A stretch of DNA of 5,816 bases from a virus (Duplodnaviria; Heunggongvirae; Uroviricota; Caudoviricetes), in IMG/VR virus record IMGVR_UViG_2671180695_000012. One strand, given 5' to 3'. Shown in pieces: positions 508 through 590 of this stretch. The translations under genes were made by a program, and so were the position numbers. Under the pieces are notes generated by a model. The model was not told where the DNA came from, made no database searches, and worked only from the letters and a program-made list of their open reading frames with translations. How positions within the stretch are numbered: the stretch's first letter is position 1; every line of letters begins with the position of its first letter.

Positions 508-520
508 TATCAATAAATTA
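508..520. promoter_or_regulatory. IHF consensus match (candidate cosB I-site)
   Basis: TATCAATAAATTA fits the IHF consensus WATCAANNNNTTR. It sits in the AT-rich block between the cos-like site and the Nu1-like start, where lambda cosB carries its IHF site. Confidence 0.3.
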
Positions 521-564
521 ACAAACATGCTGCCGCCGCCATGGAAATGCAAAAACTAGCCTTT

Positions 565-590
565 TTCCGCGACGCTCCCGCCCCGTGGCA
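565..590 (-). other. cosN-like cohesive-end site
   Basis: The minus strand reads CACG GGGCGGGAGCGT CGCGGAAAAAGG. The lambda cos junction (recalled) reads ACG GGGCGGCGACCT CGCGGGTTTTCGC. ACGGGGCGG and TCGCGG match at identical spacing and 8 of the 12 overhang positions match. Position and orientation relative to the Nu1-like gene match lambda. Confidence 0.45.

Follow-up and report, generated by a model that had tools for sequence, protein, structure and literature searches.

Introduction

The cos region of phage lambda includes cosQ, its packaging-termination element, and the lambda chromosome (NC_001416) has GGGCGGCGACCT-CGCGG as its left end and ...GTTACG as its right end. [quoted passage not shown] Differences at bp 7–12 are common among lambda-like cosN sites: N15 departs from the lambda sequence at positions 9 and 12, and Gifsy-1 does so at 8, 9 and 11 (Feiss et al., 2015, PMC4669245). 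The same study reported that cosQ is highly conserved, that the lambda TerL nicks right-half variants efficiently and that chromosomes with a 2-base mismatch of the cohesive ends (lambda/N15) still cyclise, with a yield lowered approximately fourfold. For mEp213 and LLS, the overhang GGGCGGCGCGCT has been given (2025 paper, PMC12315714).

Two phages come closest to the locus analyzed here. Phage cdtI has been described as inducible and as a lambdoid prophage. Tritos corresponds to prophage 3 of strain LF82; its virions have been seen by electron microscopy, and it plaques on MG1655 hsdR- (PMC9928086). The DNA under study, referred to below as the window, is the whole 5,816-bp contig CYFB01000068.1 from a draft Escherichia coli assembly (GCA_001286105.1), which ends inside an insertion sequence (IS). 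An initial annotation made from its letters had proposed a lambda-like cos site with a divergent overhang in front of a small terminase gene, and the present analysis followed up this proposal by comparison with known phages, complete genomes and the IMG/VR collection.

Gene context of the window

The window corresponds to a lambdoid prophage's late region, ordered as follows on the minus strand: a DUF968 fragment, RusA (5466–5092), the antiterminator Q (5095–4274), four tandem tRNA genes (Met-cat, Lys-ttt, Thr-tgt and Gly-tcc; 4130–3821, minus strand), the holin gene, a DUF1327 protein, lysozyme, Rz, an ORF with an ORF11CD3 domain, a non-coding stretch and terS. The nearest complete genome was that of strain SW071618, 99.8% identical across window 96–5816, and its prophage is annotated with three tRNAs (Ile, Thr and Gly) at the same place. 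The Q protein is long (273 aa) and has an N-terminal extension; a CXXCXGXG zinc-finger-like segment, weakly matching the DnaJ central domain, overlaps the N-terminal part of its Antiterm domain.

The ORF at 1213–851 (minus strand) has a GTG start and holds only the C-terminal ORF11CD3 domain. The annotation of its cdtI homologue, orf60, carries the remark "start codon is not identified." KilA-N-domain genes of other phages match the 5' part. The window ORF appears to be the remnant of a KilA-N/ORF11CD3 antirepressor-like gene. A promoter and terminator scan of window 300–1000 found nothing.

Organization of the cos region

The pattern ACGGGGCGG-N6-CGCGG had a single exact match in the window, while only 0.03 matches with up to two mismatches were expected by chance. 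This match, ACG-GGGCGGGAGCGT-CGCGG at 567–586 on the minus strand, is the cosN proposed by the initial annotation: it agrees with the lambda ends in both flanks (ACG and CGCGG), and its overhang agrees with lambda GGGCGGCGACCT at 8 of 12 positions, as had been claimed, the differences falling on positions 7, 8, 9 and 11. The flanking bases, the GGGCGG left half and the 12 bp between the predicted nicks are all in place, and the site aligns base for base with lambda and with Gifsy-1. In Gifsy-1 the site reads ACG-GGGCGGCAGCGT-CGCAGG, from which the window overhang differs at position 7 only. Positions 572–583 of the minus strand would form the 12-nt cohesive end, GGGCGGGAGCGT.

A megablast search of the phage collection showed that the records of cdtI (AB285204/NC_009514) and Tritos (OV696610) begin at window 583 (GGGCGGGAGCGTCGCGGAAAAAGG...) and stop at window 584 (...CTGCCACG, i.e., ...CCACG), although lambda may have served as the model when these start points were set. 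The window from -50 to +17 was 100% identical to the joined cdtI ends, and the stretch from +18 to +200, corresponding to cosB, was 97% identical to cdtI and 98% to Tritos. Because of the lambda homology and the phage record ends, the nicks can be placed provisionally, that of the minus strand after position 584 and that of the plus strand between 572 and 571, which would leave 12-nt 5' overhangs; the predicted 5' ends of the virion chromosome would then be GGGCGGGAGCGT... (583, minus strand) and ACGCTCCCGCCC... (572, plus strand). Homology and record boundaries in these close relatives therefore support the view that a lambda-like cos site places a virion genome end inside the window.

In the virion-derived assembly of phage Ayreon (MF807953), which has the same cosQ, approximately 160 bp of chimeric sequence (locus 925–1095) whose fragments resemble Q and terS coding sequence stand in place of the 12-bp overhang region. 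The assembly breaks precisely between CCACGGGG and GGAAAAAGG, as expected if the physical ends lie there. The chimera probably arose as an artefact when the physical ends were assembled or gaps were filled there. In the records of mEp460_4F5 and Flotzy, the "overhang" at the position of the Ayreon break is shortened to 9 bp.

A cosQ-like heptamer, GGGTCCT, identical to lambda cosQ (lambda 48473–48479), was found at 606–612 on the minus strand; this element had been absent from the initial annotation. Its distance to the top-strand nick is 22 bp, vs. 23 bp in lambda, and nearly all related cosN sites have either GGGTCCT or AGGTACTCC upstream. A further motif, GATAATCACTCTCAT (619–633, minus strand), lies 7–21 bp upstream of cosQ and resembles the imperfect palindrome GATAATCATTATCAC that lambda has at this position. 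The form GATAA(T/C)CATTATCA of the motif recurs in mEp213, VT1-Sakai, 1720a-02 and many IMG/VR loci, while the Tritos-type phages have GTCAGGCTGTC repeats instead.

On the gene-proximal side, the IHF-consensus site that had been noticed at about 60 bp is indeed present: WATCAANNNNTTR (TATCAATAAATTA), a candidate I1, occupies 508–520 on the plus strand, i.e., bp 64–76 when the first overhang base is taken as bp 1. The window has no other match, and taken alone this one is not significant (0.30 matches expected; at least one match in 50 of 200 shuffles). The consensus is conserved in cdtI and Tritos, and a TTGAT core is found at the same place in the cosBs of phi458, Moellerella and PSTCR8lys. 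The elements are ordered (cosQ-cosN-IHF-terS) and spaced as in lambda, so the lambda-like layout recognized initially is borne out.

The region from cosN to terS was aligned for six relatives with TerS proteins 56–73% identical, namely from E. coli, Moellerella, Rahnella, Salmonella, a Pantoea-like metagenome contig and the Providencia phage PSTCR8lys. In the five aligned relatives with a recognizable cosN, the terS ATG lies at a constant 195–197 bp from bp 1 (about 190–191 in lambda). An element of approximately 20 bp at bp 40–58 varies with the TerS clade in all six, while its flanks stay aligned, and the A/T-rich IHF-like segment comes after it. In the window this clade-specific element is CATGGCGGCGGCAGCATG (525–545, minus strand, approximately bp 40–58), a candidate TerS site at the position of lambda R3 and, by analogy, a putative R3 counterpart.

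Two further candidates for R-type TerS sites are exact copies of TTTTCACCTG on the minus strand, one at 481–490 (bp 94–103) and one at 404–413 (bp 171–180), the latter a possible R1-type site just upstream of terS. Both copies lie within cosB and in direct orientation, and with up to one mismatch four matches were found vs. 0.54 expected. Elements containing CACCTG/CAGGTG recur in the relatives at approximately bp 95–105, 120–130 and 172–185. The repeat search in cosB gave no direct-repeat family, only A/T-rich inverted pairs considered uninformative, and a lambda-style set of R3-I1-R2(inverted)-R1 had no clean assignment in the window cosB.

Small terminase subunit and its partner

The gene downstream of cosB is the truncated 5' part of terS (96–387, minus strand; 97 of 175 codons), assigned to the DUF1441 family by Pfam and by its identity to the cdtI and Tritos genes (98–100% up to window 96). 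There are two potential starts: ATG 399 lies at bp 185, the distance given in the initial annotation, while ATG 387 lies at bp 197 and is preceded by GGAG with a 6-nt spacer. The latter is the more likely start, so the original figure holds for the upstream ATG only; lambda Nu1 begins at bp 191.

The truncated TerS matched the Pfam family DUF1441 (PF07278) with E = 1e-22 over profile positions 3–89 of 147, and the cdtI protein with 2e-44. No other family was hit, in contrast to lambda Nu1, which matches Phage_Nu1 (PF07471); BLASTP of TerS against Nu1 was not significant (E = 4.6), and a PDB sequence search with TerS gave no significant match. An AlphaFold2 model of the 97 TerS residues, built on a 42-sequence alignment, had a mean pLDDT of 82 and consisted of a winged helix-turn-helix (HTH) followed by a long helix, the modelled N-terminal fold resembling solved TerS DNA-binding domains. 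Because of this modelled winged HTH, the DUF1441 TerS plausibly works like Nu1 while standing outside the Nu1 sequence family. The label "Nu1-like" originally given to the gene is thus apt by position and fold and wrong by family. The TerS proteins of Gifsy-2, Fels-1, VT1-Sakai, mEp460, mEp213 and LLS likewise belong to DUF1441.

The terS gene is followed by a gpA-type TerL (GpA_ATPase plus GpA_nuclease) both in cdtI and in the SW071618 prophage. The latter has an intact terS of 175 codons, a gpA-type TerL of 699 residues, a portal gene and a fusion gene of ClpP-protease and capsid.

State of this prophage copy

The homology to terS stops at window 96 (junction 95/96), so that TerS is cut after residue 97 of 175 and its C-terminal half is lost. 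Positions 1–95 are the left end of an ISCro1-like element of the IS66 family on the minus strand (GTAACCGGCTCATTT...), with the tnpA ATG at 12–10; read from 95 to 1 they give GTAACCGGCTCATTTAAACC..., running on to ATGAAACACCGG. This stretch is identical to the IS end that stands before tnpA, tnpB and an ISCro1-family transposase in E. coli 98232, and the IS end sequence has many copies on plasmids and chromosomes. The exact terS/IS junction occurred in none of the complete E. coli genomes of the collection.

The same IS is present in terS of E. coli 98232, 77 bp further downstream and with an 8-bp duplication (TTCTGGAG); TerL and portal genes follow. The insertions in the window and in 98232 are two independent events in one small gene.

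A second suggestion of the initial annotation was a decayed cos in a defective prophage, in which case the cos DNA would be a dead remnant usable by no terminase. The interruption of terS by the IS66-family element at 95/96 speaks for this reading and bears out its second half, and the contig covers only 5.8 kb of the prophage. The cos DNA itself, however, shows little sign of decay: cosQ-cosN is 100% identical to that of the inducible phage cdtI, cosB differs at 3–5 of 183 positions from cdtI and the plaque-forming Tritos, and cosN, the IHF consensus and the TTTTCACCTG copies are all free of these differences. The single IS insertion looks recent rather than a sign of long decay, and in 98232 TerL and portal are still intact downstream of an IS in the same gene. 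A dead cos is therefore improbable, and the preferred reading is a cis site (cosQ, cosN, IHF consensus and repeats) that is intact at the sequence level next to a broken terS. Since the IS66-family element interrupts terS, self-packaging has probably been lost, and packaging of this prophage would most likely depend on a matching TerS from a co-resident phage.

An extension of this last point is speculative and rather unlikely: the intact cosQ-cosN-cosB of the terS-dead prophage might be used in trans by a TerS of the cdtI/Tritos type, making the prophage a de facto cos satellite, and cos modules may circulate without terS. If they did circulate free of terS, the right-half overhang variants could be a compatibility code among co-resident lambdoid elements.

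A window-type cosB without an adjoining terS was observed in two IMG/VR contigs, L034 (IMGVR_UViG_2574179916_000005) and L106, inside integrase-bearing, capsid-encoding islands. The cos sites are at 92, 8227 and 10763 in L034 and at 7098 and 9603 in L106; contig L065 also has multiple sites. In L034 the prophage terS and a truncated terL are followed by the island, which encodes an integrase, Bro-N and AAA_25 proteins and SSB. Further along lie the window-type cosB lacking terS, a gene fusing ClpP-protease and capsid, and a third cos that has a DUF1441 gene of its own. The L034 island looks like a capsid-encoding, PICI-like satellite carrying phage cos modules.

Overhang variation and packaging specificity

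The 86-bp core of the site (window 540–625) was present in about 40% of the complete E. coli genomes (2,173 of 5,426). Searched with one genome per species, the exact 20-mer was found in E. coli, E. ruysiae, three MAG contigs and contigs of Streptomyces and Sphingomonas; the last two matches are assumed to be due to chance in G+C-rich DNA. A full-text literature search for GGGCGGGAGCGT and its reverse complement returned no related paper.

An IMG/VR scan with the pattern CACGGGGCGG-N6-CGCGG matched at least 120 contigs, and the following counts are for sites with a cosQ-like element. The window overhang GGGCGGGAGCGT was the commonest among the matches listed, with at least 36 such sites, followed by GGGCGGCGCGCT (at least 12), GGGCGGGAGCGG (at least 11), GGGCGGCAGCGG (at least 9) and GGGCGGCGGACT (at least 7), while about 20 rarer variants had 1–3 sites each among the matches listed. 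The lambda-type overhang appeared twice among the matches listed, under a pattern that required CACG where lambda has TACG. The left half GGGCGG was fixed by the pattern, so that the scan does not speak for its constancy; the same left half was also present in phage loci found independently of the scan pattern. [quoted passage not shown]

The cosB type of the window was found with four overhang right halves, GAGCGT, GAGCGG, CAGCGG and CAGCGT. Conversely, in phi458 and PhiR40_1 cosQ-cosN and the next 21 bp (CGCGGAAAAAGGCTAGTTTTT) are identical to the window, and the sequences diverge at window ~550 (bp 34 from the nick) into different cosBs, their TerS being only ~42% identical to the window type. 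Because these two phages share one block and differ in the other, the cosQ-cosN block and the cosB-terS block are read, on these alignments, as modules that recombine separately.

The initial annotation had taken the four substitutions in the overhang, provided that the site is functional, as a distinct packaging specificity, which would isolate the phage from lambda-type phages. It had also expected such ends to be unable to anneal with lambda-type ends; the lambda/N15 pair with its two mismatches still cyclises. It is true that 4 of the 12 overhang bases differ from lambda and that a 2-base mismatch already cuts the yield approximately fourfold. Against this stands the finding that one cosB/TerS type is combined with GAGCGT, GAGCGG, CAGCGG and CAGCGT and that the same overhang is joined to at least three cosB/TerS types which are only ~42% identical. 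The published specificity, moreover, resides in TerS and the R sites, and TerL tolerates right-half changes (PMC9026076, PMC4669245); the overhang is one nucleotide away from that of Gifsy-1 and is the commonest IMG/VR variant among the matches listed. A new specificity created by the overhang is accordingly very improbable, and the claim finds no support. The finding that one cosB type has four overhangs and that the same overhang joins different cosBs agrees with the literature that the overhang does not determine specificity: it is a frequent natural variant of the right half of cosN, where changes are tolerated, and the specificity is carried by TerS-cosB.

Discussion

Taken together, window 387–612 (minus strand) is best read, with a probability of about 0.9, as the cos region of a cdtI/Tritos-lineage lambdoid prophage, which has a tolerated overhang variant, its packaging specificity in TerS-cosB, an IS-interrupted terS and an intact cis site. 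That the lambda cosN likeness is a functionless coincidence in a G+C-rich stretch can be dismissed as next to impossible: the pattern is short and the exact 20-mer also occurs, probably by chance, in Streptomyces and Sphingomonas contigs, but only 0.03 matches were expected, cosQ, spacing, terS and lysis genes all follow the lambda order, phage records end exactly at cosN and 2173 of 5426 complete E. coli genomes have retained the core.

The cos region of this lineage would consist of cosQ (GGGTCCT), a 12-bp staggered-nick site, cosN, giving 5'-GGGCGGGAGCGT ends, and a cosB of ~185 bp leading into terS. If it works by homology with lambda, the DUF1441-type TerS would bind cosB sites via its N-terminal winged HTH, probably aided by an IHF-induced bend, and would position the gpA-type TerL, which would nick cosN at points 12 bp apart. 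Packaging would then proceed in the direction of terS and the head genes, to be terminated by cosQ and cosN at the next cos. The sequence identities, the layout and distribution of the site, the family and fold of TerS and the IS junction are demonstrated here; the exact positions of the nicks, the use of IHF, the R-site assignments and packaging in trans are parts of the picture that we infer.

The cos site is genuine and already known, being the ordinary site of a common E. coli lambda-like prophage, and it raises no new question on packaging mechanisms. Its recognition fixes the start and the end of the virion chromosome for a very common E. coli prophage lineage, which is of use for prophage annotation and genome orientation, and the copy in the window can be flagged as probably packaging-defective owing to the IS in terS. 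The overhang that appeared "divergent from lambda" is the majority type among Escherichia lambda-like cos sites, as judged by the IMG/VR matches listed, and the lambda sequence is for this reason unfit as the only search template.

Comparison with known cos systems

Lambda shares with the window the identical cosQ heptamer, the nick-flanking ACG and CGCGG, the left half GGGCGG and an IHF consensus between cosN and terS, and the TerL of the window's relatives belongs to the gpA family. It differs in its cosB, whose sequence is unrelated (a forced alignment gives 46% identity), in the TerS family (Nu1 vs. DUF1441) and in R sites that cannot be mapped one-to-one. Gifsy-1 has in common with the window overhang the changes relative to lambda at positions 8, 9 and 11, while its TerS is of the Nu1/phage-21 type and its cosB gives 43% identity in a forced alignment. 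A cos of Gifsy-1 type that would include TerS was ruled out on account of this Nu1/phage-21-type TerS, the similarity being limited to the overhang. A PICI or satellite cos was likewise ruled out for the window by its Q-lysis-cos-terS late region, 99.8% identical to the complete SW071618 prophage.

The lambdoid phages with a DUF1441 TerS (Gifsy-2, Fels-1, VT1-Sakai/Sp15, mEp460, mEp213, phi458, PhiR40_1 and LLS) share with the window the Pfam family of TerS, the layout cosQ-cosN-cosB-terS and the invariant left half GGGCGG. Their TerS proteins are only 35–42% identical to the window type, however, their cosBs diverge from ~bp 34 and overhangs differ, with GGGCGGCGCGCT in mEp213 and LLS and GGGCGGCAGCGG in Fels-1.

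The closest match is to cdtI and Tritos, which have the identical overhang GGGCGGGAGCGT, the same DUF1441 terS up to codon 97 and TerS proteins identical to each other. In cdtI the Rz-ORF11CD3-cos-terS context and the sequence upstream of cosQ also match the window, in contrast to Tritos, where cspI, ynfN, gnsB, ybcV and ybcW are located upstream of cos and the sequence upstream of cosQ is unlike that of the window. From both phages the window differs by 3–5 point differences in cosB and by a terS that is cut at codon 97 by the ISCro1-like IS66 element.
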